The position numbers and the translations under genes are program-made. The notes beneath the pieces are model-generated. The model ran no database searches. It saw only the letters and a program-made list of their open reading frames with translations, and was not told the origin of the DNA. 64,000 nt of DNA from Candidatus Pacearchaeota archaeon (GTDB lineage Archaea > Nanobdellota > Nanobdellia > Pacearchaeales > GW2011-AR1): positions 4,602-68,601 of the forward strand of contig JAGLWM010000005.1 of assembly GCA_023133415.1 (NCBI GenBank), given 5' to 3'. Below are positions 37,896 through 57,200 of the stretch, one piece after another; the first letter of the stretch is position 1, and each line of letters opens with the position of its first letter.

Positions 37896-37939
37896 TGGGT
37901 CAATCTTCCCATGAAAAACTTAGATAAAAATTCCTTATA
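37896..37939 (-). pseudogene. Relic of the integrase 5' end (promoter region plus first codons)
   Basis: 40/45 identical (1 gap) to 26032-26076, which spans the start of the intact integrase. Confidence 0.75.
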
Positions 37940-38011
37940 ATAAATTTGTAGCGGTGTTGTAGTGGATTTTGAGATAAAAAGTTTAATAAGTGAGTAAGCC
38001 AATTTATTTAC

Positions 38012-39018: not shown

Positions 39019-39093
39019 CATCCCTCAAAAATCGTAAGAATGTATGTACTTTTTGTCCAGCAAGAATTTCTAAAATATACTAAAATGAGAAGA

Positions 39094-39142
39094 TGTCCCA
39101 ACCGCCGTGGCCGGAGAGATGTGTTTTTGGGGGGTGGACTAA
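39094..39142 (+). repeat. att-like site: degenerate core plus right arm
   Basis: TGTCCCAACCG (9/11 core match) followed by a 38-bp arm 33/38 identical to 44382-44419. Confidence 0.8.
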
Positions 39143-39158
39143 AGGGGTGACCACAGAA

Positions 39159-40085: not shown

Positions 40086-40253
40086 GATATATTAAGGGTG
40101 CCCACGTTTATAAATACTTGTAATTTTGTGGTCACTGGGATGATTGCTAGATGTCTATGGAGGAAATAGAAAACAAATTAAATAAGTTTCAATCAATGAT
40201 GGATGCTTTAGAGTTGAGATTGATGAGGAAGCTAATGAACGGAAATGAAAAGA

Positions 40254-40282
40254 CGCCCCAACCGCCGTGACTAGAGATGTGT
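40254..40282 (+). repeat. att-like site: core plus right arm
   Basis: CGCCCCAACCG followed by CCGTGACTAGAGATGTGT. Confidence 0.85.
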
Positions 40283-40515
40283 CTACTTGATGGATGGAGA
40301 AAATTCTAAAGCTCTTTGGTTCTAATTATGCAATCAGTAAAATATGCAGTTTTACAATCGGAACAATAATTTGGGCAATGAACAATAAGGCTGTTTTAGC
40401 ATTTATTTCAGTCATTTCTTTTATTATTATTTTTCGTTCAATTTGAAACTTATTTTAAAAATTCTGTTTAGGTTTTCAAAGAAATATTTATATAGAAAGC
40501 TAATCTAAATAGAGT

Positions 40516-40713
40516 GGAGATAACACAAGTTAACCTTGGAAAGGTTGGGACTTGATAGTAGCTGTCAAATGCTTGACTACGATTGCGGGAATGGACTATA
40601 ACTCCTGCATGAAGATGTGCTTGCTGGTCTATTGGGTTTCGAAAACGGATGGGAAACGGTAATGAGTTGAATTACCCTACCTTTGAAATTTTCTACTGTG
40701 TCCAGTTATCTCC
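40516..40713 (+). ncRNA. Unidentified ~200-nt structured RNA, copy C
   Basis: GGAGATAAC pairs with GTTATCTCC. AACCTT-GGA-AAGGTT hairpin; CAAGTT/GACTTG; TGGAC (40592-96)/GTCCA (40700-04); TTTATATA at 40487-94. Confidence 0.82.
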
Positions 40714-40722
40714 ATTTATAAT

Positions 40723-40821
40723 ATGGTACGAACAAAAACAAAAGAGGCGAAAGTAAAGAAGCTAATTAAAATTGCTAAAGGTTCGAAAAAGAATCAGAAT
40801 AAAGATTTAAAGTGTAGATGA
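40723..40821 (+). pseudogene. Short basic ORF, probable remnant of the gene that follows RNA copy B
   Basis: MVRTKTKEAKVKKLIKIAKGSKKNQNKDLKCR*, starting 9 nt after the RNA (10 nt for copy B). Confidence 0.4.
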
Positions 40822-40848
40822 TTGGGAAATAAATTATTTAATATTCTA

Positions 40849-41020
40849 ATGTTTAAAGATAGAATTGATGCGGGAAAGCAACTTGCGGAGAAGCTTAAAA
40901 TATATAATAAGAGGCGCGATGTGATAATTCTTGGAATTCCACGTGGGGTGTGATTGTTGCGTCTGTTATTTCTAAGGCTCTAAATCTTCCTTTAGATGTT
41001 ATTATTATAAAAAAGATTGT
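40849..41020 (+). pseudogene. Truncated, frameshifted paralog of the PRT gene at 9630-10250
   Basis: MFKDRIDAGKQLAEKLK...ILGIPRG, then a 1-nt deletion, then VIVASVISKALNLPLDVIIIKKI. Confidence 0.85.
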
Positions 41021-41274
41021 TCCTAGAAAATCAGCTATCGGTTTCCAGAAAAAACCTTGAAGCCCTTGGCTATTTGCAAAAATCATATCTAATGAAGCGT
41101 CTAAGATGGCTAGAAGCACTAAAATTATCCATGCCCATAGCTTTGACAAAACCACTTTAGGTTTTTTATTTTCTTTTTTCATGATTTTTTATGGGGCAAG
41201 AGTATAAAATAAAACTCTTATAATAATTAGGAGAGAAAGGTATAAAATGTTTAGAATGAAACTCTAGGATTCCA

Positions 41275-41285
41275 CGCCCCAACCG
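41275..41285 (+). repeat. att-like core
   Basis: Perfect CGCCCCAACCG. Confidence 0.8.
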
Positions 41286-41434
41286 ATAGTAGTAAGGAAA
41301 CTAAGGGTATTCGGTGGGTTTATCCAATCTTAACGAAATTGATTTCCTAGAGATAGGTTACTAGGGGAAGTTGGAAAAATAAGAGGATTGTTTGAACCTA
41401 TCTAGTTTATATAGGCAATTTTTGCTATTATATT

Positions 41435-42760
41435 ATGGAATTTAAATCATTAAAAATCATTGAGCCGATATTGAGGGCTTTGAAAGATAAGGGCTATAGC
41501 GAAGCCACTCCGATACAGGACAAGACTATTCCACTGTTATTGGATGGGAAAGATGTTGTTGGAATTGCCCAAACTGGAACGGGGAAGACTGCTGCTTTTG
41601 CTATCCCTATTTTACAGAAATTGTCCACTGAAGGACAGGGCCCACATGCTTTAATTTTGGCTCCTACAAGAGAGTTGGCTGCCCAGATTGCTGAGGAATT
41701 TAAGGCTTATGGAAAATATTTAAATTTTAATTATCTGGCCGTTTATGGTGGTGTTGGAATTATTCCGCAGATTAAGACATTAAGTCGGGGTGTTGATATC
41801 TTGATTGCTACTCCCGGAAGATTGATTGATTTAATGGATCAGGGGAAAGTTAATTTGAAGAAAGTTGAGTTTCTGGTTTTGGATGAAGCGGATAGAATGC
41901 TTGATATGGGATTTTTAAGAGATGTTAAAAAGATCGTTAAGACCACACCCGAAAAGAAGCAGGTTCTGTTGTTTTCGGCTACTATGTCAAAAGAGATTGG
42001 TGAAATTAGCGAGGAATTTTTGACGAATCCATCCAAGATTCAAATTACTCCGGAATCTACTCCTGTTAACAAAATCGAGCAATGTGTATTTTTTATTGAT
42101 AGGAAGAATAAAGAGGAGTTATTACTGGATTTAATTAAGCAACAAAAAATGAACAAGGTTTTGGTTTTTGTTAGCATGAAGCATAAGGCAAATAAGATTG
42201 CTGTTATTTTAAATAAGAACAAGGTAAATGCTGCTGCTATTCATGGGAATAAATCTCAGTTCCAAAGAGAGAAAGCCTTGAGGGAATTTAAATCTGGGGC
42301 GGTTAGTGTTTTGGTTGCGACTGATATTGCAGCGAGAGGTATTGATGTTTCTAATATTTCACATGTTGTTAATTATGATTTGCCTAATGAGCCTGAGAAT
42401 TATGTTCATCGGATTGGAAGAACTGCTAGGGCTGGAACTAAAGGTGTTGCTTATTCTTTTTGTGAAGCTGCAGATAGAAATTATTTGAATCAGATTGAGA
42501 GGGTTATTAAAAAGAAACTTGAACATGCTGGGCATAAGTGGCACAGTGTTAACGCCAAAAGTGCTGAGGCTAAACCTAAACCTAGGGGCCAGGGTATTGG
42601 TCGAGGACGAGGTAGAGATAAAAGAAAGACTGGCGGTGGAAAGAGTAAAGGTGCTGTCAAAAACAAAGTTAGAAGCAGGGGTAGAGGAGCAAAGTTTGGA
42701 CGAGGTAAAGCTTCTGGCTCTAGGAGAGTTGCTATGGGACGAACTAGAAGTCGAAGATAA
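41435..42760 (+). CDS. DEAD-box RNA helicase (RhlE-like, bacterial type)
   Basis: 'AQTGTGKT', 'PTRELA', 'DEAD', 'SAT', 'ARGID', 'HRIGRTAR'; basic Gly/Arg tail. Confidence 0.95.
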   Translation: MEFKSLKIIEPILRALKDKGYSEATPIQDKTIPLLLDGKDVVGIAQTGTGKTAAFAIPILQKLSTEGQGPHALILAPTRELAAQIAEEFKAYGKYLNFNYLAVYGGVGIIPQIKTLSRGVDILIATPGRLIDLMDQGKVNLKKVEFLVLDEADRMLDMGFLRDVKKIVKTTPEKKQVLLFSATMSKEIGEISEEFLTNPSKIQITPESTPVNKIEQCVFFIDRKNKEELLLDLIKQQKMNKVLVFVSMKHKANKIAVILNKNKVNAAAIHGNKSQFQREKALREFKSGAVSVLVATDIAARGIDVSNISHVVNYDLPNEPENYVHRIGRTARAGTKGVAYSFCEAADRNYLNQIERVIKKKLEHAGHKWHSVNAKSAEAKPKPRGQGIGRGRGRDKRKTGGGKSKGAVKNKVRSRGRGAKFGRGKASGSRRVAMGRTRSRR

Positions 42761-42870
42761 AACAACGCAAATAAGACCATTCTATTTTAATATTCATAAT
42801 AGTTTCACAGGATAACATTTAAAATTATTTGCATTTCCTTCGGCTCCCATTAACCATACAATATAAAATA

Positions 42871-42930
42871 ACCACAAAGCTTACAGCGTACACCCATGAA
42901 TGTTTCAAAAGTGCTGAACGCCCCAATCGG
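42871..42930 (+). repeat. att-like site: left arm plus core
   Basis: 51/60 identical to 51502-51561; core CGCCCCAATCG at 42919-42929. Confidence 0.88.
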
Positions 42931-42945
42931 TCTTCTAACTTTTTG

Positions 42946-43977
42946 TTAGACCCCCAAAATATTATTATCGTTAATATATTTTTGAACTAATTTGATGGCA
43001 TCATCATTAAAATGAGTTTTAAGCCCTTCTTCTATCTTAACCCATTTCCACTCCTTGAATTTTTCGGGTTCCATCAATATTGGCTCTCCATCAATAGAAC
43101 AATAAAAAAGATGAACTATATCATCCTTCCAAGACCCTTTTATCTCTCCAATAAAATCAAGAATCTTAAAATCTGAGCTTTTTATTCCGATTTCTTCAAA
43201 CACTTCTCGCTTTAAGGCTTCTCCAATTGTTTCACCCTTGTCACACCTACCTCCGGGAAAATTCCAAACAGATAACTCCTTTTCCTGATATACCCTATTT
43301 CCCAATAATACACTTCCATCCCTTATTATTATGGCAGCAGTGCAATTATTTTCCATTGCCCTGATATTAAGAACCTTATTTAATGTTAAATTTTCATTGA
43401 ATGGAATTATTCCAAAATCCATAGTCTCTGCTTTATGTTGCATCCGTTCATTTATTGTAACCCCTTTTCTTTTTGAAACGTTTTTTGCAGACTCTATATT
43501 GTTTACCTTAAATTTTCGATTTCTTAAAGCTTCAATTCCCTCTTTTCCAATTAGCTCATTATTTTTGATATTAAATGCAAGTGCTTGTATAGTAAATGGC
43601 ACTCCTTCTAACATGTTTTCTATCGTTGGTTTAAGCTTCTTCTTAGCAATATACTCATGTTCAGAAATTGGGAATATATCAACCTCTACATTTCCCTTCT
43701 TAAAAGTAGGATTACCAAATTTTTGATATGAAACTTCCCATCCCTCACTTGCAGTTATTTTTTCATTTAACTTATCAACAACAAAGTCAAAATCATTTGT
43801 TTCTTGCGAACCACCATAAAGTTCTCTTGCCAAAGTTCTACTTACAGCCCCTCCAATAATGTAGATATTCCCTTCTGAATTTTCCTTAACTAATGAGATA
43901 ATTTCTTTATACTCCTGTATCTCTCTTAACTTTTTAACTAAGATTTCTGAGAGGGATTTTTCATCAAATTTGACCAT
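42946..43977 (-). CDS. Fusion of a CCA/poly(A)-polymerase-like nucleotidyltransferase head and a NUDIX hydrolase
   Basis: 'YIIGGAVSR..DFDF', 'PFTIQALA'; NUDIX box 'PGGRCDKGETIGEALKREVFEEIG'. Confidence 0.78.
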   Translation of the reverse strand: MVKFDEKSLSEILVKKLREIQEYKEIISLVKENSEGNIYIIGGAVSRTLARELYGGSQETNDFDFVVDKLNEKITASEGWEVSYQKFGNPTFKKGNVEVDIFPISEHEYIAKKKLKPTIENMLEGVPFTIQALAFNIKNNELIGKEGIEALRNRKFKVNNIESAKNVSKRKGVTINERMQHKAETMDFGIIPFNENLTLNKVLNIRAMENNCTAAIIIRDGSVLLGNRVYQEKELSVWNFPGGRCDKGETIGEALKREVFEEIGIKSSDFKILDFIGEIKGSWKDDIVHLFYCSIDGEPILMEPEKFKEWKWVKIEEGLKTHFNDDAIKLVQKYINDNNILGV

Positions 43978-44370
43978 AATTAGAAGAATAGTTCAGGGTA
44001 TAATAATCTAACTAATCTTAATCAGATTTATTGGAGGCTTCTTCAATTCTATGCCTCTCTTCTCAGTGCTTCTCAAAATTTTCTCTAAGTTCCTTATTAT
44101 TTGGGTTTCTTAAAGCAATAACATATTCTTTGAAGTCTTCTTCAATTTCACCTAAAAATAAGATAGGGTTTATTTTTATCATCCCTCCAAATTCATTTAG
44201 AAATTGAATTGTAATATCTTTATTATATTTATTAAATTCGTGGAGGCCATAATCATCTTCTTTGGTGTTTTCTCAGACTATTTTATGACGGTTAATGTCT
44301 CTCTCTCTGCCATAAAAAATAGACACAAATTTCACTTAATAAGATTTAGAGTGTATAACATATAGTTAAA

Positions 44371-44419
44371 CGCCCCAACCGCCGTGACTGGAGAGATGTG
44401 ATTTTGGTGGGTGGATTAA
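44371..44419 (+). repeat. att-like site: core plus right arm
   Basis: CGCCCCAACCG followed by CCGTGACTGGAGAGATGTGATTTTGGTGGGTGGATTAA. Confidence 0.88.
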
Positions 44420-44433
44420 TAATATTACAAGAC

Positions 44434-45108
44434 TTAGATAATTTCTACAATCTCACCAATATTATTTTTTAGAGAGTAAAGCATTGGAGGTCTATGTGAT
44501 ACATTTTTCTTTAATTCTTCTTCCCTTAGAATATTAAGTGAAATAATTTTCTTGGCAAAATTTCTTTTATCAAATCTTTTATTAAAAACGATTTCATAGA
44601 TTTTTTGTATCTGGCTTATTGTAAATTTTTGTGGAAGTAAGGAAAAGGCGACAGTTGTATATTCAAACTTCCATTTTAATCTTTTTAAGGAATAGTCTAA
44701 AATCTTTTTGTGATCAAAGGCGAGAGTGGGAATTTTTTTAACTGAAAACCACTTAACGTCTGAAACGTCTGTTGTTGCTTTCAGTTTGATATTTTCAGAA
44801 TTTGTAAGAGCCATATATGCAACAGTTATTACTCTTCCCCTGGGATCTCTTTTTATATCTCCAAAACTAAACAACTGCTCAAGATAAACATTCTGCACAC
44901 CTGTTTCTTCTTTTAATTCTCTTTTAGCGGCATCTTCTAAGGACTCGTCCATTCTAACAAAACCCCCCGGAAGTGCCCATTTCTCCCTAAAGGGATTAAT
45001 ATCTCTCTTCACAAAAAGAACTTTTAGTTCGTCCTCCCTAATCGTAAATATAACTATATCCACAGTTAAAGATGGCTTTCCAAAATTATGTATATTTTCC
45101 TCTTTCAT
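44434..45108 (-). CDS. nrtR: NrtR-family regulator (NUDIX plus winged-helix domain)
   Basis: 'WALPGGFV...AAKRELKEETG', 'YLEQLFSFG..RDPRGR', 'LAFDH', 'FDKRNFAKK'. Confidence 0.9.
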   Translation of the reverse strand: MKEENIHNFGKPSLTVDIVIFTIREDELKVLFVKRDINPFREKWALPGGFVRMDESLEDAAKRELKEETGVQNVYLEQLFSFGDIKRDPRGRVITVAYMALTNSENIKLKATTDVSDVKWFSVKKIPTLAFDHKKILDYSLKRLKWKFEYTTVAFSLLPQKFTISQIQKIYEIVFNKRFDKRNFAKKIISLNILREEELKKNVSHRPPMLYSLKNNIGEIVEII

Positions 45109-45143
45109 GTTGTTGGTAAAACAATAAGATATTTAAATTTACC

Positions 45144-45923
45144 CTAGAATCCCTCAATCACTCTTAACGGCTTTTCTGATAATTTAATTTCAACAATATC
45201 TCCTTCATTAAAATCGTACAATTTAAATCCGATTGCAATTATTCCACCAGAATCTCTTTTTGATTCAAAAGAAATTTTTTCATCAGATAAAATATCTCCC
45301 CCTAAAACTGTCGAAACATAAACTCTTTCTCCATAATATGGCTCTCTAACTATAAAGCCAAGTTTTTTTTCGTTTGCATTGAATTGTTTTCCACCCGCAG
45401 ACTTAAACCAGCCACTAGAGCCAGTTCCAGTAGAAATAATAACTCCCGAACTTCGCTGTTCTTCCTTCTTGTCCCTATAGTTAATTATATATCTGGAAGT
45501 ATGAAAATTATTTTCCGCACCAACATAAACCTCATTAGAAGCACGCTCATCTAAAACTTCGCCGTTTAACTTTACCTTCGCCCTCTGTCTCTCAATAACA
45601 TTAAGTTCCCTATTTAATATCTCTTCTAACTTCCCTACTTCATTCATAGATAAGCTTGTCAGTGCTCCTTCACTTGAGCTCGGATGAGAATTTATTCCCA
45701 AGATATAAGAATCTTCTATTCGATTAGCAGCCTCTATAAATGTGCCATCTCCACCAAGAGTTATCACCAAATCTGCATTATGCATTTTTTCCTTCTTTAA
45801 ATTATCATAAAAAGTCCAGAAAAAATCAAATCCGTTCAATGCCTTCATTAGCTTTTTAGAACTTTCTAGGTGTTCACTGGTATTCTTCTTACTTTCAACA
45901 ACAACAACTTTTTCAAATTTCAT
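45144..45923 (-). CDS. nadK: NAD kinase
   Basis: 'LGGDGT', 'NE', 'STGTGSSGW..SAGG'. Confidence 0.88.
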   Translation of the reverse strand: MKFEKVVVVESKKNTSEHLESSKKLMKALNGFDFFWTFYDNLKKEKMHNADLVITLGGDGTFIEAANRIEDSYILGINSHPSSSEGALTSLSMNEVGKLEEILNRELNVIERQRAKVKLNGEVLDERASNEVYVGAENNFHTSRYIINYRDKKEEQRSSGVIISTGTGSSGWFKSAGGKQFNANEKKLGFIVREPYYGERVYVSTVLGGDILSDEKISFESKRDSGGIIAIGFKLYDFNEGDIVEIKLSEKPLRVIEGF

Positions 45924-46342
45924 TTTTTATTTCCAAATTTAGTTATATAATCATCTAATATTTTCTTATGATCAAAAGCTAAGTCTGGTAAGTCGTCTAA
46001 TGGGAAAAATCTCGCGTCTTTTGCATCGTCAGCGGCCCTAAGCTCTCCGCTAAAATTTTTTACAACATAAACATGGGTAATGTAATGTCCTCTTGGGTCT
46101 CTATCTGGCTCTGAATAAGCTCCAACTAGTTCAAGGTCAGAAAGATTTACTTTTAAGTTTGTTTCTTCAAATAATTCTCTCGCAGCAGCTTTCTCGGTTG
46201 TTTCTTCCCCATAATTAATATGTCCTCCTGGAAATGCCCACATATCTCTGAATGGCTTAATCTCTCTTTTAATTAAAAGAATTTGGCTTTGTTTTTTAAC
46301 AACGATATCTACAGTTGTACAAGGATTTCTATACTCGGTCAT
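45920..46342 (-). CDS. NUDIX hydrolase (ADP-ribose pyrophosphatase-like)
   Basis: 'FPGGHINYGEET..AAARELFEET', 'RDPRGH', 'LAFDH'. Confidence 0.88.
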   Translation of the reverse strand: MTEYRNPCTTVDIVVKKQSQILLIKREIKPFRDMWAFPGGHINYGEETTEKAAARELFEETNLKVNLSDLELVGAYSEPDRDPRGHYITHVYVVKNFSGELRAADDAKDARFFPLDDLPDLAFDHKKILDDYITKFGNKK

Positions 46343-46895
46343 TGTAAAGTCCCTCCCTAATTATATAATTTTCCACTTCCGTGAAAACTAATCTAGAGAT
46401 AGGTTTGCCCTTAGCAACTCTCTCTCTTATCTCCGTCGAAGATACTTCAAAAAAAGATCCTCTTTGGACTGTCATATCTTGGGGTTCTTTTCGAATTAAA
46501 TAGCCTTTTCTTTCGAAAACAAGGAAGTTAACTAGCTCCACCAATTCTTCATTCTTTTTCCAGTAGGGCAAATCAGGTAAAACATCAGAACCAATAATGA
46601 AATAAAAATCATGGTTGAATTCTTTCTTTAATTTCCGTACAGTATCAATAGTATAATTAATACCTTTAGAATTCAGTTCAACACGATTAATTTTGACACT
46701 ATCTATTTCTTTAATTGCATATTCAATCATCCTAATCCTTTGCTCAGAATTTAAAAGATTCTTACCAAAGGCATGTTCTTTACAAGGAATAATCCATACC
46801 TCTTCGACAACCTTGGATTCTAAAGTTTTATTGATAACTTCTATATGAGACTTGTGAATAGGATTAAAGCTACCGCCAAAAAGTCCTACTTTCAT
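46329..46895 (-). CDS. nadD: Nicotinate-nucleotide adenylyltransferase (bacterial NadD type)
   Basis: 'GGSFNPIH..H', 'YTIDT', 'IIGSD', 'VSSTEIR'. Confidence 0.92.
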   Translation of the reverse strand: MKVGLFGGSFNPIHKSHIEVINKTLESKVVEEVWIIPCKEHAFGKNLLNSEQRIRMIEYAIKEIDSVKINRVELNSKGINYTIDTVRKLKKEFNHDFYFIIGSDVLPDLPYWKKNEELVELVNFLVFERKGYLIRKEPQDMTVQRGSFFEVSSTEIRERVAKGKPISRLVFTEVENYIIREGLYNDRV

Positions 46896-47731
46896 TTTTC
46901 CACCTCATAAGATAAATTTAGTTCACCAATTAGGGGAATCTCTCTCTTGTGCTGCGTAATCCTGTGTCTTCTTGCCACATCATTAATAATTTCTTTCTTA
47001 AATCCTGTAATTTTTTGGATTTGTATTGAGGTATACTCCTGATCAAATCCATTTTGAATCAGTTCTGCCTGCTCGTAAGTATATCCGAGTTCTCTTTCAT
47101 CAGTCTGTCCCTTCCACAAGGCTGCAGTTGGAACCCTATTAACGAGATCTTCTGACACACCCAAATGTTTTGCCAAATCTTTCACTAATCTTTTTGGAAT
47201 ATTGCCCAAGATATTATTATCGACGGCACCATCCCCTCTTTTAGTAAAATACCCTAAAACATAATCCTCATCCTTGTTTCCTGTTCCCATCACTCTGCAG
47301 TTTTTAGCTGCAGCTACTCTGCTCAAAACGACTGCCCTTACTTCAGAATATAAATTACCTCTATGAAATTCTCCCTTAATGTCTAGGATTTGGTGTGCAA
47401 ATGCTTCAGCTATCGGTTCAATTGGAATAACCAGTGATTCAATTCCAATATTTTTTGCTACTCTTAAGCCATCCTGTCTATCTACTTCACGATTTGCATT
47501 TGAGGGCATTATGACGCCATAAAGTTGTAATGGATTATTTAGATTTTCCTGATTATACATATTAAAAGCGTAATTGCACAGGTAGGCAATTGTTGTCGAA
47601 TCAACACCACCGCTTAAACCAACAACGCCACCGTCCGCACCAGTTCCTTTCGTAAACCTAATTATTTCTCTAGCTAATTCGTCGATTGCCTTTTCTACAC
47701 CATTAGTAAAATATGCTCTTTTTATTTTCAT
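46892..47731 (-). CDS. nadE: NH3-dependent NAD synthetase
   Basis: 'GLSGGVDS', 'GTGNKDE..LGYFTKRGDG', 'PTAALWKGQTDE.ELG'. Start set at the ATGA overlap. Confidence 0.93.
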   Translation of the reverse strand: MKIKRAYFTNGVEKAIDELAREIIRFTKGTGADGGVVGLSGGVDSTTIAYLCNYAFNMYNQENLNNPLQLYGVIMPSNANREVDRQDGLRVAKNIGIESLVIPIEPIAEAFAHQILDIKGEFHRGNLYSEVRAVVLSRVAAAKNCRVMGTGNKDEDYVLGYFTKRGDGAVDNNILGNIPKRLVKDLAKHLGVSEDLVNRVPTAALWKGQTDERELGYTYEQAELIQNGFDQEYTSIQIQKITGFKKEIINDVARRHRITQHKREIPLIGELNLSYEVEK

Positions 47732-48642
47732 TTTTCTGCCTCCAATAAATACGGAGTTAAACACAGCCTACAAAATTTATCTCCTCGCATAAATTCCTCA
47801 ATTTTATCATCTGTATTAGCAAGCAAAAAAACATCACTAACCTTTAGATTCAAATCATGCTTTTCATTTATTTCCTTAATTATCTTTTCTTGTATCGGTC
47901 TATATTTTTTGTACAACTGTCCTGGCTTAATTCTATCCAGAATTCTATCAGTTACAACTAACGAAAAAATATTCTTAAACCACTTATTCGCAATCAATGT
48001 TTTTAGAGGTTTTCTGGTAAAGGTAAAACCTGATCTTAGGTAATACATGCCAAACGGCTTACTCATTGAAGCAACAACCGCGACTACATTGGGATGGCTA
48101 ACATCAATTGCGTAGTGTCTCGTCATACCTAAATATGCTAGGTCATAAATCACCTTGTGGGTCTCACAAATTTTCTCGACCACTTCATTCTTTATTATAT
48201 TACCGTCTCTACCAGAAGGATTCGATATAAAAAAATATCCTGGTTTCAATTTCGTAAAATCCTCGTCCTCATCAACTTCGACAATTTTTATATTGAGTCG
48301 AGTTGCATATTCTGAGTAACCCTCATACTCTCCGTCGAGAACATACACTACCACATCCGGGTTTTTTGTCTTAATTTCAGCAAGTAAATGAAATATACCC
48401 TGCCGCGATCCATCTGTAGAATAACTGTATTTAAAATCTTTCAATGCGGGGACATCGGCGGCATAATACTTGACAAATTTCTTGATAATCGGCTTGTCAA
48501 AATCATCCAAACCCGGATCAATTGAGCTTAAAAAAACGTCGTGTGGAAATTTTTCCGAAACTTCATCTATCACTTTCCTAACCTCAGGAAAATAATAACA
48601 ATAAACTCCCCTAATTGCATTCAGCTTATTCCGATTCTTCAT
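47728..48642 (-). CDS. PLP-dependent enzyme (class I/II aminotransferase fold, short)
   Basis: 'TDGSRQG', 'SNPSG', 'YDLAY', Schiff-base Lys in 'SMSKPFG..LRSG'. Confidence 0.75.
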   Translation of the reverse strand: MKNRNKLNAIRGVYCYYFPEVRKVIDEVSEKFPHDVFLSSIDPGLDDFDKPIIKKFVKYYAADVPALKDFKYSYSTDGSRQGIFHLLAEIKTKNPDVVVYVLDGEYEGYSEYATRLNIKIVEVDEDEDFTKLKPGYFFISNPSGRDGNIIKNEVVEKICETHKVIYDLAYLGMTRHYAIDVSHPNVVAVVASMSKPFGMYYLRSGFTFTRKPLKTLIANKWFKNIFSLVVTDRILDRIKPGQLYKKYRPIQEKIIKEINEKHDLNLKVSDVFLLANTDDKIEEFMRGDKFCRLCLTPYLLEAEK

Positions 48643-49505
48643 ATTAAAATTGCCCCCTTATATTGCCAGTCATATCTTAGATGTCCATCTGGGAAAAAGA
48701 TAATTTGTCGAACATCTTCCTTGCTTGATTCAATTGTTAATGCATTTGTCAAGCAAATATTTTGACCCTCAAAATCATAAATAACGGCTCCATGAGCAAG
48801 CGTAAGCAACTGATTTCCATTTTTCCTAATAAATGATTCAATCTTATCGTAATCATCGTCACTAAGTATATTGTTTATTGTCCACTCATAAACTTTCTTA
48901 CATTTAGATTTCTGTGGTACCGCAAGTTTCCTAAGGCTTAATTGTTCAACATTCCATTTCTTGGTTATCTCTATCAAAGCTCTTGCTTCGTTTTCACTAT
49001 CTACAAAACCCTTAATTAAAGTACAGCTAAATCTCACAGTATATCCAATCGCATGTAACTTGTCAACCAGTTTTTCCAAATCAATATATTCTCTATGTGG
49101 GGTAAAAATTTCCTTATTTTTTCCCTTATCATAATGAGCAATTGAAATCGCAATGGTGGTCAAGCCAAGCTTATACCATTCCTCTAAATGTTTATTGTAT
49201 TTCTTATCCAATAGAACAATTCCATTCGTCTGAATCTCAATAAAAGGAAACTCGAATCTTTTTAACTTCATTAAAAACTCTGTAATTTGTTCTGGAAAAA
49301 GAGTCGGTTCACCCTTACCTGTTATTAACACAGTACTCACACTATTCATCTTGGCAAAATTGCAGGCTTTCTCAAAATTTCTCCAATTAACAACTGGTTT
49401 CTCTTTGCCAATACCTTGTTTTGGAGTCATCTGGGAAACACAATAAGGACATTTGGCATTACAAGCCGAACTTCCTGCAACAATTGTAAATGTCTGTATT
49501 TTCAT
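48639..49505 (-). CDS. Radical SAM protein of unknown function
   Basis: 'CNAKCPYC' (CxxxCxxC), 'ITGKGEPT', 'EIQTNG'. Confidence 0.9.
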   Translation of the reverse strand: MKIQTFTIVAGSSACNAKCPYCVSQMTPKQGIGKEKPVVNWRNFEKACNFAKMNSVSTVLITGKGEPTLFPEQITEFLMKLKRFEFPFIEIQTNGIVLLDKKYNKHLEEWYKLGLTTIAISIAHYDKGKNKEIFTPHREYIDLEKLVDKLHAIGYTVRFSCTLIKGFVDSENEARALIEITKKWNVEQLSLRKLAVPQKSKCKKVYEWTINNILSDDDYDKIESFIRKNGNQLLTLAHGAVIYDFEGQNICLTNALTIESSKEDVRQIIFFPDGHLRYDWQYKGAILI

Positions 49506-50155
49506 ATTCTATCCTCTAAGATATTTTTAGTTGTTGTAAAATTAACTCCGGCATTTTTCCACTTTTCTAAAACTTTTTCGGTATCCAGGGGAGTTCCTGC
49601 TAGGTCTGGTAAATCTTTCATGGCGTCTATAATCGCGTAAACTGTCCTTCCTCTCTCAATGTTACCCATTACAGCGAAATCATTGCAAGCATTTAACGCA
49701 ACACCGTAAATTATAATCTTATCAGGATTCAAAATATTTATAGCCTTAGCAGCCAACGGATTACCGGCAAAAACATCAAACTTGTATTTTTCTATAACAA
49801 GATTTTCTGCTTCTCTTAATTTCTTAGTGTCTATTTTTTTTGCATCTCTTGTTAATCTGTATAGGTTTTCGGGACGAGTTGCAGGAACATATTCTGCACC
49901 ACGAGTATTTGCCATGCAATGAGGTGGATATGTATCTACAAAGTTTGGATTTTCTGCGTCAATCTCGTCATCTTCTAAAGTATGCCAATCTGCCGTATTC
50001 ACCACATAAATTTCATTTTGCTTAGCATATTTTGTCAGCTTGGCTAGATTGTCTTCTATTCCTCTCGCATTTGGAACTGGTAATGCACCCTTGAAGCTTT
50101 CGTCATCTCTCATAAAATCATACTGAGTATCTACATTCCAAAATATTTTTTTCAT
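49502..50155 (-). CDS. pncA: Nicotinamidase (isochorismatase fold)
   Basis: 'VDTQYDF', 'DWH', 'PPHC', 'GVALNAC'. Confidence 0.85.
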   Translation of the reverse strand: MKKIFWNVDTQYDFMRDDESFKGALPVPNARGIEDNLAKLTKYAKQNEIYVVNTADWHTLEDDEIDAENPNFVDTYPPHCMANTRGAEYVPATRPENLYRLTRDAKKIDTKKLREAENLVIEKYKFDVFAGNPLAAKAINILNPDKIIIYGVALNACNDFAVMGNIERGRTVYAIIDAMKDLPDLAGTPLDTEKVLEKWKNAGVNFTTTKNILEDRI

Positions 50156-51300
50156 AAGATTTCCTCCAACCTATCACCAGGCAATTCCGTTCGACCAACT
50201 TTTGAGTTAGGAATCCAAATCTGTTTATTCTCATCAAAATATGCACAAATGTCAGACGTTGTCATTATCAAATTTTTTAATCCAAAACTTCCAGTCCCAA
50301 TCGCATCAAATAAAGGCTTGTCATACATTTTCTGATAAATTTTATCAGCTTCTATGAAAGCCGTAGTTTTATTTGCATTAAAGCCACTTGATACAAACAA
50401 TTTTAGATTGCCCAGGTCAGCATTGTCTAAACCTTTTCTCAGACCCCAAACACTTGCTATTGTAACACCTTTGCCTTGTTTATATTTTTTGGAAACATTT
50501 AATTTTGGAAGTTTAACATTCTGGCTCGCTTCTGTATAATTTTCACCACAAGTATCAATTCTAGTTCCAGAAACTGGTATACCTTCTCTTGCAGTCTCAA
50601 CTATGTCTGACAATTCTCGGTTAAATGTGCAACCTAAGATTGTTCGAGGAACTTCTTTTGTTATATGTTTATCAAAAGCTTTTGCGGCCTCAACAGTTGG
50701 ATTACCATCAATATTATTTTGCTCCATGTGTGCTTTATAGGCTAAGAATAGTGCATGGGGTGTTGTTCCCAATCCTACGTTACCCCAAGCCTTAGCGCCA
50801 ATATCTGTTGATGTTCCAGCGAAGCCTTCTTCTTGGCAAATTTTTGCGATTTCTGGGATTAGGTGTGGAGCGAAATGTCGTGCGCTAAAATCAAAAACCG
50901 GCTTACCCTCAGCAGCCTGATAAATATCCCTTGCACCCTGTCTTAAAGCATCCAAATCAACGTCCCCGGTTAAAGCACCAGAAGTTATACTCAAATAAAT
51001 TGTCTCAAGATCAATATAATCCTGAACCCGTCCCTCCATCTTTATCATAGATTCCCCAGTAGCGTACTTCTGACCATTCTTAAGAGTATAAACCTTCCCC
51101 CTATCTCCAACAGAATTCTTAATAAAAGCTGCAGCCTCATCCACTCCCTCAAGCTCGGCAACATCTCGTCTAGCAAAAACCTGATACCTCACAATCGGAT
51201 TAATATTCTCAGCCTCTAATATTTCTTTACTTCGAAGGAAATACTTGTCGGTATATTCTAGACGTTTTTCAATTATTTGTGTTTGTGTTGTGTTTACCAT
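50152..51300 (-). CDS. pncB: Nicotinate phosphoribosyltransferase-like protein
   Basis: 'TDKYF', 'DFSARH', 'GTTPHA', 'RIDTCGE', 'VSSGF', 'KVGR'. Confidence 0.8.
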   Translation of the reverse strand: MVNTTQTQIIEKRLEYTDKYFLRSKEILEAENINPIVRYQVFARRDVAELEGVDEAAAFIKNSVGDRGKVYTLKNGQKYATGESMIKMEGRVQDYIDLETIYLSITSGALTGDVDLDALRQGARDIYQAAEGKPVFDFSARHFAPHLIPEIAKICQEEGFAGTSTDIGAKAWGNVGLGTTPHALFLAYKAHMEQNNIDGNPTVEAAKAFDKHITKEVPRTILGCTFNRELSDIVETAREGIPVSGTRIDTCGENYTEASQNVKLPKLNVSKKYKQGKGVTIASVWGLRKGLDNADLGNLKLFVSSGFNANKTTAFIEADKIYQKMYDKPLFDAIGTGSFGLKNLIMTTSDICAYFDENKQIWIPNSKVGRTELPGDRLEEIL

Positions 51301-51308
51301 AAGTTATT

Positions 51309-51366
51309 GTATGATATACACTATATAAAGACTATTGTGATTAAGTATATGTATTATTTACACTAA
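51309..51366. promoter_or_regulatory. Two candidate NrtR operators (GT-N7-AC) flanking the pncB TATA box
   Basis: GTATGATATACACTA (51309) and GTATTATTTACACTA (51351), 42 bp apart, on either side of a minus-strand TTTATATA at 51322-51329. Confidence 0.6.
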
Positions 51367-51501
51367 GTATGAGATAAATATTAAAGAATTTACCTAAAAA
51401 ACTATCACGCCCTACCTGGGTGTCTCAAATTCAACCAATTTCCATTTCCACCATTTCTTAAAAATTTGTAAAAATTGATGTCAGCAACGATAAACTAGAT
51501 G

Positions 51502-51560
51502 ACCACAACACTTATAACGTCCACCCATGAAAGTTTCAAAAGTCCTGTACGCCCCAACCG
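51502..51560 (+). repeat. att-like site at the tRNA: left arm plus core
   Basis: The core 51550-51560 is the tRNA 3' end; the arm is duplicated at 42871-42918. Confidence 0.88.
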
Positions 51561-51621
51561 GGGATTGAACCCGGATCTCGGCCGCGACAGGGCCGTGTAC
51601 TAACCACTATACTATTGAGGC
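51550..51621 (-). tRNA. tRNA-Asp(GTC), CCA not encoded
   Basis: GCCTCAA/TTGGGGC acceptor stem, CGGCC-CTGTCGC-GGCCG anticodon arm, GTTCAAT T-loop, G discriminator. Confidence 0.97.
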
Positions 51622-51937: not shown

Positions 51938-52156
51938 TTGATGACAATGGTGAAAAATAGTAATAGTAGTGAGAAATCGGTTTTGAAGTTTCTTGGGAAG
52001 AATGATAATGGTTTGACGATTACTGAATTGGTTAGTTTGTCTAAATTTTCTCGTTCTACAATTAGGGTGGTTTTGGCTCGGCTTGAAGGCGCTAATAAAA
52101 TTTCTTTTAGGGAAATCGGGATGGCTAAGGTTTATGTTTTGGGAGGCGGGAAATGA
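51938..52156 (+). CDS. Small winged helix-turn-helix protein
   Basis: 'GLTITELVSLSKFSRSTIRVVLARLEG..KI...IGMAKVY'. Confidence 0.8.
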   Translation: MMTMVKNSNSSEKSVLKFLGKNDNGLTITELVSLSKFSRSTIRVVLARLEGANKISFREIGMAKVYVLGGGK

Positions 52157-54276
52157 ATAAAATTATTTTATCTGTTGTTTTGTTGTTTTGTATAGGCGGA
52201 GTTTTTGCCTCTTCGGTTTCGGTTTGGCAGGGGCAGTATTATACTGGGACGACTTTTAATAGTGGGACTTATACTTTTAATTTTACGGTATATGATGCTG
52301 AGACTGGAGGTAGTGCGTGTTTTAGTAATACTACTAGTTTGACTACTGGGCATTGGGGTCAGTGGCGAACGGAACAGAGTCCTTGGGACTCTTGTGACAA
52401 TGCTTCCAAAGAATATTTTTTGAATATAAATATTGCGGGTTCAGATCAAACTCCCAGGAGAAGATTAACTGTTTCTGATTTTTTGAGGCGTGATGTTTCT
52501 GGTGTTCAAGATGGGAATTTAGTTGTTAATGACAATGTTACGGCTGATTATTATTTTGGGAATGGGAGTTTTTTGGTTGGAATTAATGGGACTGGGGATA
52601 TAACTTCTGTGCATGGTGATAATATTTATATTTATAATGGGAGTGGTAGTGGGGATGTCGTTTTGGTTTTTAATGAGACTAAGTTAAATGCTACGATTGA
52701 TGATAGAGGAGCCGGCGGTGATAATTCTTCTTGGAATGAGAGTTATGCTGATGGGAAATATATTTTGCAATCTGAGGAGGGGAATTTGGATGTGAATTCT
52801 TCAATATACTCTAATTCTACGACTTGGTGGGCATCTGTTTCTTCTTGGTTATCTGGTTGGTTTGTGAATGATGGAGGGGTTTTGGAATTTAATGAGAGTA
52901 AGTTGAACGAGAGTATTGATTCAAAAATAGATGATATTCCGGATGTTGGTTGGTTAAATGATTCTTTTAGCACGAATACTTCTTTGAATGTAATTGTGGG
53001 GGGAAATATAACTACTTCTAATTATGGGTTTTTTGGAGAGATAGGTAGTTTTTTATCAAGAGTTGCAAAATTGTGGGTTGTGGATATTAATGCTAGTGGG
53101 GATGTTAGTATCGGAGAGAATTTGCAAGTGGGTCAAAATGTTAGCGCGGGTTGGTTTAATGGTTTGTTTAATTGGTTTATCGAGGATAATTCTTCTGGTT
53201 TTCTTTCTTTTAATGGTTCTGCCTTGGCCTTTAATGAGTCTCAGTTGGATAGTGAAATTGATTCTGGTATTGCGGCTTCTCAAGTCTTATATTCTCCGAA
53301 TAGTATAGAAACTATCGTCGGAACATTGGATGGGGGAAATTTGACTTCTATTGAGTCTATAAATGATGGGGATACATATAACGTTTCGGAAACAACGAGT
53401 GCACCTGGATTTGTGATTGTTGTTAATTTTAGTGATGTTGAAATTTTTAATCAAATTTATTTGGAAGAATATTATACGGGTAAGTCTGGGCATACGATAG
53501 AGATTCAGTTATATAATTTTAATGATTCGACTTATGATTCTTTTGGAAGTTTTTCTAATCAGGTAGATTTTAATTTTCATAGCTTGGAAGTTTTAGCTTA
53601 TCAGGATTATGTAAATGACTCTAATGTTAGTCTGAGGATTTATCATGTAGATTCCGGGAATCAAAATCATGATCTTTTTATTGATTATGTGGCTTTGAAG
53701 TATGATAGTGCGGGGGTCGTTATTACGGATCATGGTTCTTTAGGAGGTTTGGATAGCGATGACCATTTGCAATATTTGAGAACGGATGGGGCTAGGGTAA
53801 TGACTGGCAATTTGAATGCTTCGGTTTATAATATTACTTCGGTTTATATTTTTGCGAATGGTTCTCAGTTGACGGATGTCTGTTTGTCTAATGGGACGAA
53901 CTGTCTTTCTGCTGGCGATAATTCTTCTTGGAATGAGAGTTATGCTGATGGGAAATATATGAATTTGTCTGGAGGGAATGCCGATCAGGATATAAACGTA
54001 GCTCCATATAATTTTGAAGCGGGAAATGCAACTTTTACGCAGAAAATAACTTTTGCTTTTGGTGATGTAATTGATAATATCGTAAATACTTGGATTAGGG
54101 TTAGTGGAGGGTTGAATGTTACTCAGGGTTTAACTGTTGGGGGAGATGCTGATGTTGGGGGGAATGTCACGACTGAAGGAATTCTCTTAGAGCATGACCC
54201 CGTTAATCACAGAATTTATGATAATTCTACATGTGTGATAATAAGGGGGGATACATCTACAATGTATATTTGTTAA
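52153..54276 (+). CDS. Secreted Asn/Ser-rich surface protein
   Basis: Signal peptide, 'WQGQYY...YTFNFTVYDAETGG', many N-x-S/T sequons. Confidence 0.7.
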   Translation: MNKIILSVVLLFCIGGVFASSVSVWQGQYYTGTTFNSGTYTFNFTVYDAETGGSACFSNTTSLTTGHWGQWRTEQSPWDSCDNASKEYFLNINIAGSDQTPRRRLTVSDFLRRDVSGVQDGNLVVNDNVTADYYFGNGSFLVGINGTGDITSVHGDNIYIYNGSGSGDVVLVFNETKLNATIDDRGAGGDNSSWNESYADGKYILQSEEGNLDVNSSIYSNSTTWWASVSSWLSGWFVNDGGVLEFNESKLNESIDSKIDDIPDVGWLNDSFSTNTSLNVIVGGNITTSNYGFFGEIGSFLSRVAKLWVVDINASGDVSIGENLQVGQNVSAGWFNGLFNWFIEDNSSGFLSFNGSALAFNESQLDSEIDSGIAASQVLYSPNSIETIVGTLDGGNLTSIESINDGDTYNVSETTSAPGFVIVVNFSDVEIFNQIYLEEYYTGKSGHTIEIQLYNFNDSTYDSFGSFSNQVDFNFHSLEVLAYQDYVNDSNVSLRIYHVDSGNQNHDLFIDYVALKYDSAGVVITDHGSLGGLDSDDHLQYLRTDGARVMTGNLNASVYNITSVYIFANGSQLTDVCLSNGTNCLSAGDNSSWNESYADGKYMNLSGGNADQDINVAPYNFEAGNATFTQKITFAFGDVIDNIVNTWIRVSGGLNVTQGLTVGGDADVGGNVTTEGILLEHDPVNHRIYDNSTCVIIRGDTSTMYIC
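52720..53960 (+). repeat. Identical 44-bp intragenic direct repeat (52720-52763, 53917-53960)
   Basis: GATAATTCTTCTTGGAATGAGAGTTATGCTGATGGGAAATATAT (DNSSWNESYADGKY) twice. Confidence 0.85.
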
Positions 54277-57200
54277 ATGAGGAAAGTATTTTTTGTTGGA
54301 TTTGTTGGATTATGTTTATTGGGGATTGTGTCGGCTGGAGGCTCTCAAGAGAAACAACTAGATGAATTTTTTTTTGGTTTGATGGAAAAAATGAAATCTG
54401 TTTTTAGTGATGTTTTTCATTTAGCGAGTGCTTTGGAGTCTAATATTACGGATAGGAATGATAGTTTAGTTAATGTTTTGGAGGATGGTGTGAATATAAC
54501 GGGCGGTTCTTATTTAGATAACATTAGTGAAATTAATTTTACCGAAGAGGAAAATATCACTTTATTAAATTTTTCAGGTAACGAAACTAATTTGTCTCAA
54601 GTTGAAGGGCTTAATAATTCTGATTTGAATGAAACAGGAATAGCTGATAACGATTCAATTCAGTTTGTTAATGATTTTGTAATTAATGAAACGGAGTATT
54701 TTTATTGGGATAGAGTAATTGTGAATAATTATTTTGGGGATTCGGAAGAGGTGAGTGTTAAATTGAAAATTCCTAAGAGGTTGGAGAATATTACTAAGGG
54801 AATTGATTATGAGGAAAAAAATAGTCAGGATTCTTTTTCGGTGATGGTTGTGTCTCAGAAGTTGGGGTGGCTTAAACAAGAATTGAAAAGAGAGTTGGGG
54901 AATAAATATTCTGAGGTTGAGGTTGAAAATATTAGTATTCTGAAAAGGATTAAATTTAATGAATTGGAGTTGGATGATGATTTTTCTTTGGGTGTTGAGG
55001 AGTTGGATTTGAATGATTCTGTGCAGAGCTATGCGATAGATCCTAGTCGGCTTAATTTTACGAATGCCAGTGTTACGCTGGTTGCGAAGGGGAAGGAGTT
55101 GTATAGGTGTAGGGATTGGAATTTTAGTGAGCGGGTTTGTTATGCGGAATGGGAATTGTTTAGGACTGATTTAGTTCCTGGTGAAGAATATTCTTTTATT
55201 TTAACTCCGGATGATCCTGCTTTTAGGGAAGAAATTAACATAACCAATGCTGTGCATTTAGATGAGAATAGGAGTTTTGTTTCGAATATTTTTGATGAGG
55301 TTAGATATCAGGATGGTTTGTGGTCTGAGGCTGTTTATCATGATGAATATGTTAGAGCCACATTTGAGGAAAATTTGACTAATGGGAATGTTGTTAATCT
55401 CTATGTGAGAAATGGGACTTCGGATATGTTTGTTGAAATCTATGAAAAAGATGGGGTTATTTTGCTTGGTTCGATATTTGTGGATGGGGAAAATCAATAT
55501 GATTTGAGATTGCAAAATATGTCTGGCTATAATGATGTTTTTGATATTAGAATAGTGAATGGAGAGAATGATTCAAATGCTTCTCTTGAATTTGATTATA
55601 TTCATGATGCGGGTTCTTTGGCTTCTTTTGATGGGAATTTTTTTGAAGATTTTGAATCGGGAAGTTTGGCTACGAATGGTTGGGCTACGAGCGGGGGGGC
55701 GAGTAGTAATTGGATTGTTTCAATTGAAGATGCATACAATGGGACATATCATGCTGAAGCTGAAAATACTGACAGTAATTCCACTCTTTTAACAAATATT
55801 AGCACTGAGGATTATGGAAATATTTCATTTAGTTTTTGGTATGACACGGATAATTTTGAAGCTGGAGATTATTTGTTTGCGGATTGGTATAATGGGACTG
55901 ATTGGATTAATGTTTTAACTGTTGATGGAACGAATACGGGAGCATATACTTTAAGTAATAATACGCTTACAAGTGATGCGAATAATAATCCGAATTTTGC
56001 AATAAGGTTTATTTGTAATAGTGATAAGAATAATGAATGGTGTCAAGTTGATTATATCCATGTAATTGGGCAAAAAATTCTTTCGATTAATTTAGATGAT
56101 TATTATGGATTGAATAGTTCTTTGGGAAGGGTTGATGAATTTAATAGTAGTAATTTGGAAGAGATAGAATATATGGAGTTGAATTTCTCGATTGATTCTA
56201 CTCAGGTTATAGATAGTTGGTATTTGAATTTTACGGCGAATGGAACAAACGGGTGTAGTTTGGGGAATAAGCAAAGTAGTGTTTGTTATAGTTATGACAA
56301 TGCGACTTATCAGTGGATCCAGTTTATCAATAATACAAATACTACAACTTATGATGGGACGCAGGGGAACCAGGGAGATAGGATTGTTGTAATTCAGACG
56401 GGTTCTGGAAATCAGGTTAATGTTAGTTTGAGAATCGACGAGCATTATAATCCGAACGTTTTCAAGTGGTATGATGCGGAATATAATTTTTCGGATGTGA
56501 GGTGGCAGAATGGGGCTGAGCAGAGAATTACAGGAGATAATCATATTAAGATAGAAATCAATCAGACTTTAGTTCCGATTAATGCGGATCAGTATAAACT
56601 TGATTTTAGAGCAGAATATGGTGGTAATCCGACCCAGCCTCTGGAAGCTTATGCTTGTAATAGTAGTTATGTAGATGGGCATGTTCATGATTTTACTGGA
56701 TGTGTTTTGGTTGCTCAGAAATTTCCAAGTGAATTTCAGGATGTTGGGACAAAGTTTAGGGAAATCTTTACGAGAAATTTAACTGACCAAATTGGAGATT
56801 TTAAGTATGTAGTTCTTGAGACCAATGAGCAAAATACTTCTAATTATTATGCTATTAAAACTTATAAGGCGACTAAGGCGAGTTATACAACTCATTGGGA
56901 ATATTCAACAAACCTTGGAGATAATTGGACAAATTTGAATGATGGCTATGAGACTGAGTTAAATATAAATTGGTTTTATGATGGGGCTGATCCGACGGCT
57001 TTTGTTTATCGGTTTTGGGCGAATGATAGTGATGGAACCGAGGAATATTTGGAAGGGAATATAACTTGGGATATTGATCCTACTAATAATTATCCTCCTC
57101 TTGTGGATCTTAGAAGTCCACTTTCTGTTGGATATTTAAGTTTTCCTTATAATATTACTTTTTTACTTTCTGATCCTAATGATGATAATTTGAATGGAAG

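Follow-up and report, generated by a model that had tools for sequence, protein, structure and literature searches.

Nicotinamide adenine dinucleotide (NAD) biosynthesis and salvage are usually held to be fully mapped. Tandems of a radical S-adenosylmethionine (radical SAM) enzyme and a pyridoxal 5′-phosphate (PLP) enzyme have precedents in BtrN-BtrS and DesII-DesI, and the placement of a PLP enzyme inside a NAD operon has one in NifS of the Bacillus nad operon. Phages reportedly rebuild NAD through the reconstitution pathways NARP1 and NARP2, said to have been described by Osterman and colleagues in 2024. In cellular genomes, the NrtR regulons (Rodionov et al. 2008, PMC2330246) combine a repressor built from a NUDIX domain and a winged helix-turn-helix, a GT-N7-AC palindrome and targets of the pncAB, nadDE and nadK type; no radical SAM or HisC-like gene is listed there, and the nrtX-nrtY pair alone is unexplained. 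Here we analyse a 64,000-nt stretch of DNA from a Candidatus Pacearchaeota archaeon (contig JAGLWM010000005.1, positions 4,602 to 68,601; hereafter the window), in which a nine-gene NAD operon with a gene for an NrtR-type regulator encodes a radical SAM protein (rSAM) of an uncharacterised family followed by a PLP enzyme. The regulator, the predicted operator palindrome and the putative targets are of the kind known from the described regulons, whereas the host is a DPANN archaeon and the promoters are of the TATA type.

We tentatively propose that the rSAM, here together with its PLP partner, is a catalytic member of the ADP-ribose-sensing NrtR regulon of NAD homeostasis and carries out a reaction outside the described NAD pathways.

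Results

Gene content of the operon

A first-pass annotation of the window had placed nine minus-strand open reading frames (ORFs) at 44434-51300, and all nine are present at these coordinates and in the order given below. Families were assigned by Pfam and NCBIfam model matches.

50152-51300, minus strand: pncB-like archaeal type-II phosphoribosyltransferase (PRTase), presumed nicotinate PRTase (NaPRT); weak NaPRT NCBIfam matches and PDB 2i14
49502-50155, minus strand: pncA, nicotinamidase of the isochorismatase fold; PF00857, 49.4 bits
48639-49505, minus strand: rSAM, uncharacterised family with a MoaA/viperin-like fold; PF04055, 47.5 bits against a cut-off of 29.5
47728-48642, minus strand: PLP enzyme of fold-type I, 304 aa, HisC/CobD-like; PF00155 (Aminotran_1_2), 28.6 bits against 19.7
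46892-47731 (ORF 46892-47764), minus strand: nadE, NH3-dependent NAD synthetase; PF02540, E 1.7e-56
46329-46895, minus strand: nadD, nicotinate mononucleotide (NaMN) adenylyltransferase; TIGR00482, 150.6 bits against 112.45
45920-46342, minus strand: NUDIX hydrolase of the ADP-ribose/NAD(H) pyrophosphatase type; PF00293, E 1.2e-25
45144-45923, minus strand: nadK, NAD kinase; PF01513/PF20143 and NF002255, E 6.9e-20
44434-45108, minus strand: nrtR, NUDIX plus NrtR_WHD winged helix, ADP-ribose-responsive repressor; PF21906, E 3.1e-20, and NF050029, 183 bits

The first eight genes are joined by six ATGA overlaps and one 14-nt overlap (nadD/NUDIX), as the earlier description of short overlaps had it, and a 35-nt spacer lies ahead of nrtR. 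For nadE, the start was taken at the ATG at 47731, which overlaps the stop codon of the PLP gene in an ATGA junction. The reading frames of PncA, NadD and NadE are intact and their family matches clear; in the PncA translation, the motifs VDTQYDF, DWH and PPHC and a catalytic-type Cys were recognised by eye. Because the pncB-like protein scores below the cut-off of every NaPRT model (NF006415, 115 bits against 243) and its top PDB match is an archaeal PRTase of the 2i14 type (E 1e-15), its substrate is presumed. The queried NAD genes are single-copy, so that the operon copies are the sole ones in the 836-kb assembly, which is 85.6% complete.

Linkage of the rSAM and PLP genes to NAD genes

We collected loci in two ways. 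The PLP-seeded sample comprises 60 loci, one genome per species, from DPANN archaea, Candidate Phyla Radiation (CPR) bacteria, Melainabacteria, Acidobacteriota and others; the rSAM-seeded sample comprises 80 species-level loci kept from 171 genomic relatives. In the PLP-seeded sample, 51 of 56 loci have the rSAM gene directly ahead of the PLP gene, and the other recurrent neighbours are all NAD genes: NadE (20), NUDIX/NrtR (20), PncA (19), PncB (19) and NadK (17), followed by the rarer NadA (8), NadD (7), NadB (6), NadR and PnuC (5), ADP-ribosylglycohydrolase (4) and nucleoside hydrolase (3). Gene order varies among these loci, which argues that the association is not a single inherited block.

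The same company is found when the search starts from the rSAM, with NadK in 37 of the 80 loci, NUDIX/NrtR in 32, PncA in 30, NadE in 25, PncB in 22, NadD in 19, NadA in 15 and NadR in 14. A PLP gene is present in 35 of these loci and missing from 45. Genome-wide searches, whose negatives depend on assembly completeness here and below, found no PLP gene in 26 rSAM-only genomes; this search lacked a separate positive control, though the same alignment found the 60 PLP loci. The first-pass annotation had regarded the two genes as a tightly coupled pair, and their adjacency stands, but the pairing is not obligate: the rSAM often occurs without the PLP gene, and the PLP gene also occurs with a non-homologous partner.

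The rSAM gene stands next to NadK, NadE or NadD as often as next to PncA. In Melainabacteria, it lies in an operon with a nicotinamide riboside (NR) kinase fusion, a double nicotinamide mononucleotide adenylyltransferase (NMNAT) and NadK, and shares a 4-nt overlap with nadK. As the company of the rSAM ranges over genes of the Preiss-Handler, NR-salvage and de novo routes and NadK, we favour a substrate that all routes have in common. Both genes are thus recurrently linked to pnc and nad genes in DPANN archaea and in CPR and other bacteria, and the rSAM alone in phage contigs; family models and the papers searched place neither in a known pathway. The two outcomes named earlier as refuting an undescribed branch of NAD metabolism, a usual lack of linkage and assignment to a known unrelated pathway, were thus not observed.

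An operon was seen in Obscuribacter (L204:3051-8888) in which a Se/S-carrier-like domain is fused to an NR-kinase-type AAA_28 domain and is followed by a two-domain protein, NadK and the rSAM. The two-domain protein has 645 aa and carries two cytidylyltransferase-like (NMNAT/NadD) domains.

Predicted NrtR operators

To describe the operators we used the pattern TAGTGTA-N5-TACACTA, which was defined from a few promoters and counted at up to 2 mismatches. The predicted boxes share the GT-N7-AC core of NrtR operators (PMC2330246). Ahead of pncB there are two:

51305-51323: putative NrtR-type operator box, 1 mismatch to the pattern
51347-51365: putative NrtR-type operator box, 3 mismatches to the pattern

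These boxes overlap the TATA-like CTTTATATA; the one at 51305-51323 lies 5 nt from the pncB start and is the best pattern match in the window. The same boxes stand upstream of pncB in three orthologous promoters (loci L003, L036 and L049). A separate TTTAAATA box belongs to nrtR, whose 35-nt spacer (45109-45143), conserved in L001, L002, L004 and L036, contains the element TTGTT-N5-AACAA.

In CPR loci where the rSAM-PLP pair has no NAD neighbour, a box is found about 20 nt upstream of the rSAM (L009, L010, L011, L013, L017, L020, L029, L037, L052, L057 and others). In the stretch from the operon start to the rSAM, a box was found in 43 of 98 non-redundant cellular rSAM loci, compared with 3 of 64 viral ones; with shuffled sequence, the overall number of box matches fell to about one fifth. 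NrtR is encoded elsewhere in all 14 tested genomes whose module has no or few NAD neighbours. The predicted operators thus support co-regulation of the module with NAD metabolism on grounds other than gene adjacency.

The rSAM and its structural relatives

The rSAM belongs to the radical SAM superfamily, and its motifs CNAKCPYC (CX3CX2C) and GKGEPT are invariant in 68 homologues, including C15, C19, C22 and G65-E66. Neither a second Cys cluster nor a SPASM/twitch auxiliary-cluster motif was found in alignments of 14 and 68 sequences; the C-terminal half has only one conserved Cys, C251, which varies in the larger alignment although it is invariant in the smaller one. The structure prediction that had been suggested earlier was carried out, and the AlphaFold2 (AF2) model, a partial TIM barrel with a pLDDT of 94, is nearest to MoaA and the viperins: Foldseek returned MoaA (2fb2, TM 0.70) and viperin-like proteins (9dfn, 5vsl and 6q2p, TM 0.66-0.69), then NifB and BlsE. 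A profile search of the PDB gave MoaA, Tes and viperin. The invariant R158 aligns with the lysine of the MoaA motif ‘nvKvN’, which we take to be the phosphate-binding K163.

MoaA (GTP 3′,8-cyclase) and the viperin and viperin-like synthases of 3′-deoxy-3′,4′-didehydro-nucleoside triphosphates (ddhNTPs) thus resemble the rSAM in the CX3CX2C core and the GGE-type motif and are its best structural matches. Unlike MoaA, the rSAM has no C-terminal auxiliary-cluster Cys motif, and its context is that of NAD genes, against molybdenum cofactor genes for MoaA and antiviral genes for viperin. No described family matching the rSAM or the PLP protein was found in the full-text literature searched.

Sequences from archaea, bacteria and viruses are intermixed in a tree of 164 rSAMs, and PLP linkage is limited to a few clades; the window rSAM is sister to an orthologue from an archaeal metagenome-assembled genome (MAG) with 75% identity. 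In a Peribacteria genome (G254, the genome of L051), the rSAM homologue is read through nine in-frame TGA codons, consistent with an alternative genetic code.

The PLP enzyme and its alternative partner c35

The residues N141, D167, Y170, S192, S194, K195, R203, R286, R292 and C294 of the PLP enzyme are invariant in 14 archaeal and bacterial sequences. The protein is of fold-type I, since it keeps the Schiff-base Lys (K195 in SMSK), the Asp for the pyridine N (D167), the Asn of NPS and the Tyr for O3′ (N141 and Y170), the Arg for the phosphate (R203) and two C-terminal Arg residues. Judged by their catalytic motifs, both it and the rSAM are intact enzymes, although neither attains the cut-off of a curated NCBIfam family. 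The closest solved relatives in a profile comparison with the PDB are HisC (1h1c, E 4.6e-10) and CobD (3fkd), both of which bind phosphorylated substrates; the PLP enzyme lies below the equivalog cut-offs of these two families (TIGR01141, 32.3 against 276.6; TIGR01140, 31.7 against 290.6). With HisC (histidinol-phosphate aminotransferase) and CobD (threonine-phosphate decarboxylase) it shares the class I/II fold and the SxSK, NPS, D..Y and R..G motifs, but it falls short of them by about 45 residues, its N-terminus is Tyr-rich and highly conserved, an RxCLTPY motif lies in its C-terminal part, and in the loci examined it never occurs in his or cob contexts. BtrN-BtrS, DesII-DesI and NifS differ in that their PLP enzymes are of other subfamilies (DegT, class V) with no sequence relationship beyond the superfamily, and BtrN, unlike the rSAM, has a twitch domain.

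In five PLP loci without rSAM, the PLP gene is adjoined by a protein of about 285 aa, here called c35, as in the order PncA-c35-PLP-PncB of an Acidobacteriota MAG (L054). This family has 74 members (P0241-P0314), no Pfam domain and no name, and it shows conserved HDFxH and EYxAxNETE motifs (for example L015:8845-9702 and L054:890-1744). It adjoins a HisC-like PLP gene in every locus examined; three further c35-PLP contexts were found, in two of which c35 overlaps the PLP start by 4 nt. A predicted operator box also lies upstream of c35 in L022. Genome-wide searches found the rSAM in none of six c35 genomes, with matches in two control genomes. For c35, AF2 gave a confident model (pLDDT 91.9) to which the PDB offered no match at E < 1; the only matches, all weak, were uncharacterised proteins of Tupanvirus. 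One contig (L063, 3440-8245) carries rSAM, PLP enzyme and c35 together, flanked by three NadD-like paralogues.

In Melainabacteria (L043-L048 and L056), the PLP homologue has about 448 aa, some 130 aa more than elsewhere, and the rSAM that pairs with this long form is a second and more divergent copy, separate from the NadK-linked one of the same genomes. We also considered as a new partner c86, a protein of about 275 aa encoded after the PLP gene in L019, L033 and L038. It was rejected, as it looks like a divergent PncA-like protein by a weak BLAST match and by motifs seen by eye; it is unrelated to c35.

Viral rSAM loci

The rSAM is found on 80 IMG/VR contigs, none of which yielded a PLP gene in a pattern scan and a tblastn search within 10 kb of the rSAM. 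An rSAM ORF was called in 73 viral loci, of which about 24 have NAD genes near the rSAM and 49 have none nearby. Several viral modules have the order PncA-rSAM-PncB-NadD-NadE, with canonical NAPRTase, isochorismatase and NAD-synthase domains, and NaPRT is encoded elsewhere in 10 of 40 further phage records. Like NARP1 and NARP2, these modules are phage-borne gene sets that rebuild NAD, but they are of the Preiss-Handler type (PncA, PncB, NadD, NadE) with the rSAM added, as opposed to the Adps/Namat and Nampt/NMNAT types. A search of isolate phages gave two weak matches only (26% identity), both to uncultured huge-phage records.

The tRNA-Asp cassette and its distribution

The operon lies between a tRNA-Asp gene and a copy of the 3′ end of that tRNA:

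51550-51621, minus strand: tRNA-Asp (GTC; ARAGORN), whose 3′ end is the upstream cassette boundary
44351-44420: att-like repeat (family D1; repeat analysis) with a copy of the tRNA-Asp 3′ end at 44370-44380, the downstream boundary of the NAD cassette

The 3′-end word GGTTGGGGCGT recurs at 44370, 42918 (1 mismatch), 41274 and 40253; it has 6 matches in the window against 0.3 expected. The copies at 42918, 41274 and 40253, together with a related repeat at 39074-39143, delimit further cassettes. Within the class, 9 of 151 genomes carry the rSAM, which was not found in any of the 3 same-genus and 14 same-family genomes; PncA is likewise absent from the three same-genus genomes. Of the same-genus genomes, one carries different cargo at its tRNA-Asp, behind three repeats, and in another the site is empty. 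The data support the earlier suggestion of a mobile cassette in a probably metabolically reduced archaeon; mobility is supported by the tRNA gene and its 3′-end repeats, the absence from the three same-genus genomes and the other cargo at the same tRNA.

Behind tRNA-Asp, the cassettes form a tandem array at 37896-51621, each ending in a tRNA 3′-end copy or a related 70-nt repeat. Its cargo beside the NAD operon is as follows:

42946-43977: NUDIX fusion
41435-42760: DEAD-box helicase
39159-40085: Fic
38012-39018: 2H-phosphoesterase and NUDIX

The NUDIX fusion, in its own cassette next to the NAD operon, has 343 aa with a C-terminal NUDIX domain and about 200 N-terminal aa without assignment. 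Just beyond tRNA-Asp lie an ORF of 2131 aa (54277-60672) and one of 707 aa without a Pfam match (52153-54276), which are probably large surface proteins.

Discussion

Taken with its neighbours and predicted operators, the module is very probably a catalytic member of NAD metabolism. In the scheme that we tentatively favour, the rSAM would be the core enzyme, with one [4Fe-4S]/SAM site in a barrel of the MoaA/viperin type; it would bind a nucleotide-type NAD metabolite, such as NAD(P), nicotinate adenine dinucleotide (NaAD), NaMN or ADP-ribose, and initiate the abstraction of a hydrogen from it by radical chemistry. When ADP-ribose signals that NAD is being broken down, this reaction would help to rebuild or recycle the NAD pool. 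The HisC/CobD-like PLP enzyme would add a facultative second step, an amino/keto exchange or a decarboxylation of a carboxylated or phosphorylated precursor or product, and in genomes without rSAM the unrelated c35 would partner the PLP enzyme, probably for an equivalent step by other chemistry. A substrate at the nucleotide level, which we put forward with reserve, is favoured because it is common to all NAD routes and consistent with the MoaA/viperin-like fold. Put more broadly, the rSAM family may, though we hold this with some doubt, catalyse a new radical reaction of pyridine-nucleotide metabolism, which would either form the nicotinamide/nicotinate ring without O2 or recycle or repair ADP-ribose or NAD(P) directly by a radical step, with the PLP enzyme as feeder or finisher and c35 as an oxygen-tolerant analogue.

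Several observations weigh against this proposal. The likeness to MoaA and viperin (TM about 0.7, 12-19% identity) is generic for small radical SAM enzymes, and the rSAM is far below both equivalog cut-offs: TIGR02666 (MoaA) gives 55.9 against 284 and covers residues 13-188 alone, and NF038283 (viperin) gives 36.2 against 180, the likeness to viperin being structural alone. The recurrent pncA-pncB position (in the window, in phages and, for c35-PLP, in Acidobacteriota L054) fits a step at the level of the base at least as well. No NAD gene lies within 8 kb in 27 of 73 cellular rSAM loci, and 8 of 15 near-complete rSAM phage records lack any NaPRT. Because L063 holds rSAM, PLP enzyme and c35, c35 is not a clean substitute for the rSAM. 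The data come entirely from MAGs or viral contigs, with mechanical ORF calling and inference from sequence.

The main rival is a strong one, even if we judge it unlikely: that the module supplies precursor by an O2-independent making or unlocking of the pyridine base (nicotinamide, nicotinate or a masked form), which would enter at PncA/PncB, with the PLP enzyme to prepare a substrate of the amino-acid type and the rSAM (in aerobes, c35) to form or unmask the ring. NrtR regulons normally include precursor-supply genes (PMC2330246), and in three independent cases, namely the window, phages (L072, L079 and L124) and Acidobacteriota L054, the unknown genes are found next to pncA and pncB or between them; moreover, few genes stand immediately upstream of the rSAM as often as PncA, and the C-terminal Arg residues of the PLP enzyme are typical of alpha-carboxylate binding. 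It fits less well that the melainabacterial rSAM is coupled to NR kinase, NMNAT and NadK where NaPRT matches are weak at best, that the rSAM adjoins NadK, NadE or NadD no less often than PncA, and that PncA is kept although a nicotinate-forming route would not need it; pyridine-making by this fold also has no chemical precedent. The remaining roles are less likely. LarB/LarE work on NaAD, and BtrN/BtrS perform a radical SAM oxidation followed by PLP amination; in a similar manner, NaMN, NaAD or NAD supplied by the NAD genes could be the feedstock for a modified dinucleotide or another cofactor. The tandem of rSAM and aminotransferase would then follow a known amino-sugar logic, the nucleotide-type fold of the rSAM would suit it, and the three NadD paralogues around rSAM-PLP-c35 in L063 hint at more than one mononucleotide substrate, but we consider this improbable: derepression of NrtR by ADP-ribose suits replenishment better than consumption, the PLP step is missing in more than half of the lineages, and the module is kept in genomes of roughly 0.6-1.7 Mb and in phages beside full salvage sets ending in NadE and NadK.

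A maturase role, in which the rSAM (anaerobic) or c35 (aerobic) would modify the PLP protein or another NAD enzyme post-translationally, is analogous to the action of the anaerobic sulfatase-maturating enzyme (anSME) and the formylglycine-generating enzyme (FGE) on sulfatases. It would account for a PLP gene that always comes with the rSAM or c35, these two being largely exclusive, and for the invariant Cys294 within RxCLTPY; yet the rSAM is common in the absence of the PLP protein and carries no auxiliary-cluster motif of the SPASM/twitch kind, and no conserved alternative target was seen, which makes such a role quite improbable. The rSAM could finally be an unrelated passenger, a viperin-like antiviral or anti-defence nucleotide modifier that shares mobility and not function with the NAD genes. 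Its patchy spread suggestive of horizontal transfer (9 of 151 class genomes), the intermixed tree, the cassette location in the window and the 49 of 73 viral loci without a nearby NAD gene agree with this, but predicted NrtR operators stand directly before the rSAM in genomes whose NAD genes lie far from it, the rSAM is translationally coupled inside operons and the viperin model gives 36 bits against a cut-off of 180, so that we regard it as very improbable indeed.

A number of narrower roles were considered and dropped. Replacement of Nnr, the NAD(P)HX dehydratase, was rejected as a simple displacement, as PF01256 is also present in 12 of 15 rSAM genomes; the comparison within the class is uninformative, with Nnr in 1 of 9 rSAM holders (0 of 8 with strong matches) against a base rate of 20%. 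Ammonia supply for the NH3-type NadE was rejected, since the pair adjoins both short and long (glutaminase-fused) NadE genes, and so was a shortage of phosphoribosyl pyrophosphate (PRPP), as a PRPP synthetase (Prs) gene lies outside the operon at 11081-11905 in the same window. A substitute for NadB feeding NadA was rejected as a general role because NadA is missing from most loci; a tblastn search with a DPANN NadA query gave no match in this genome. A rearrangement of histidine to the nicotinamide ring, an idea that came from the likeness to HisC, was set aside because the atom connectivity gives no 3-carbon substituent.

A family without an assigned reaction that stands beside NAD genes or is apparently regulated with them, in two domains of life and in phages, suggests a missing step of NAD metabolism, which may belong in particular to anoxic, host-dependent lifestyles or to the means by which phages counter NAD-depleting defence systems. 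The rSAM family is small and soluble, and since its candidate substrates are few and a regulator site is predicted, it can be tested directly at the bench. If our proposal is true, a new radical reaction would add an enzyme step to the NAD map and would help to explain the NAD supply in many DPANN archaea and CPR bacteria, and in cells infected by some large phages.

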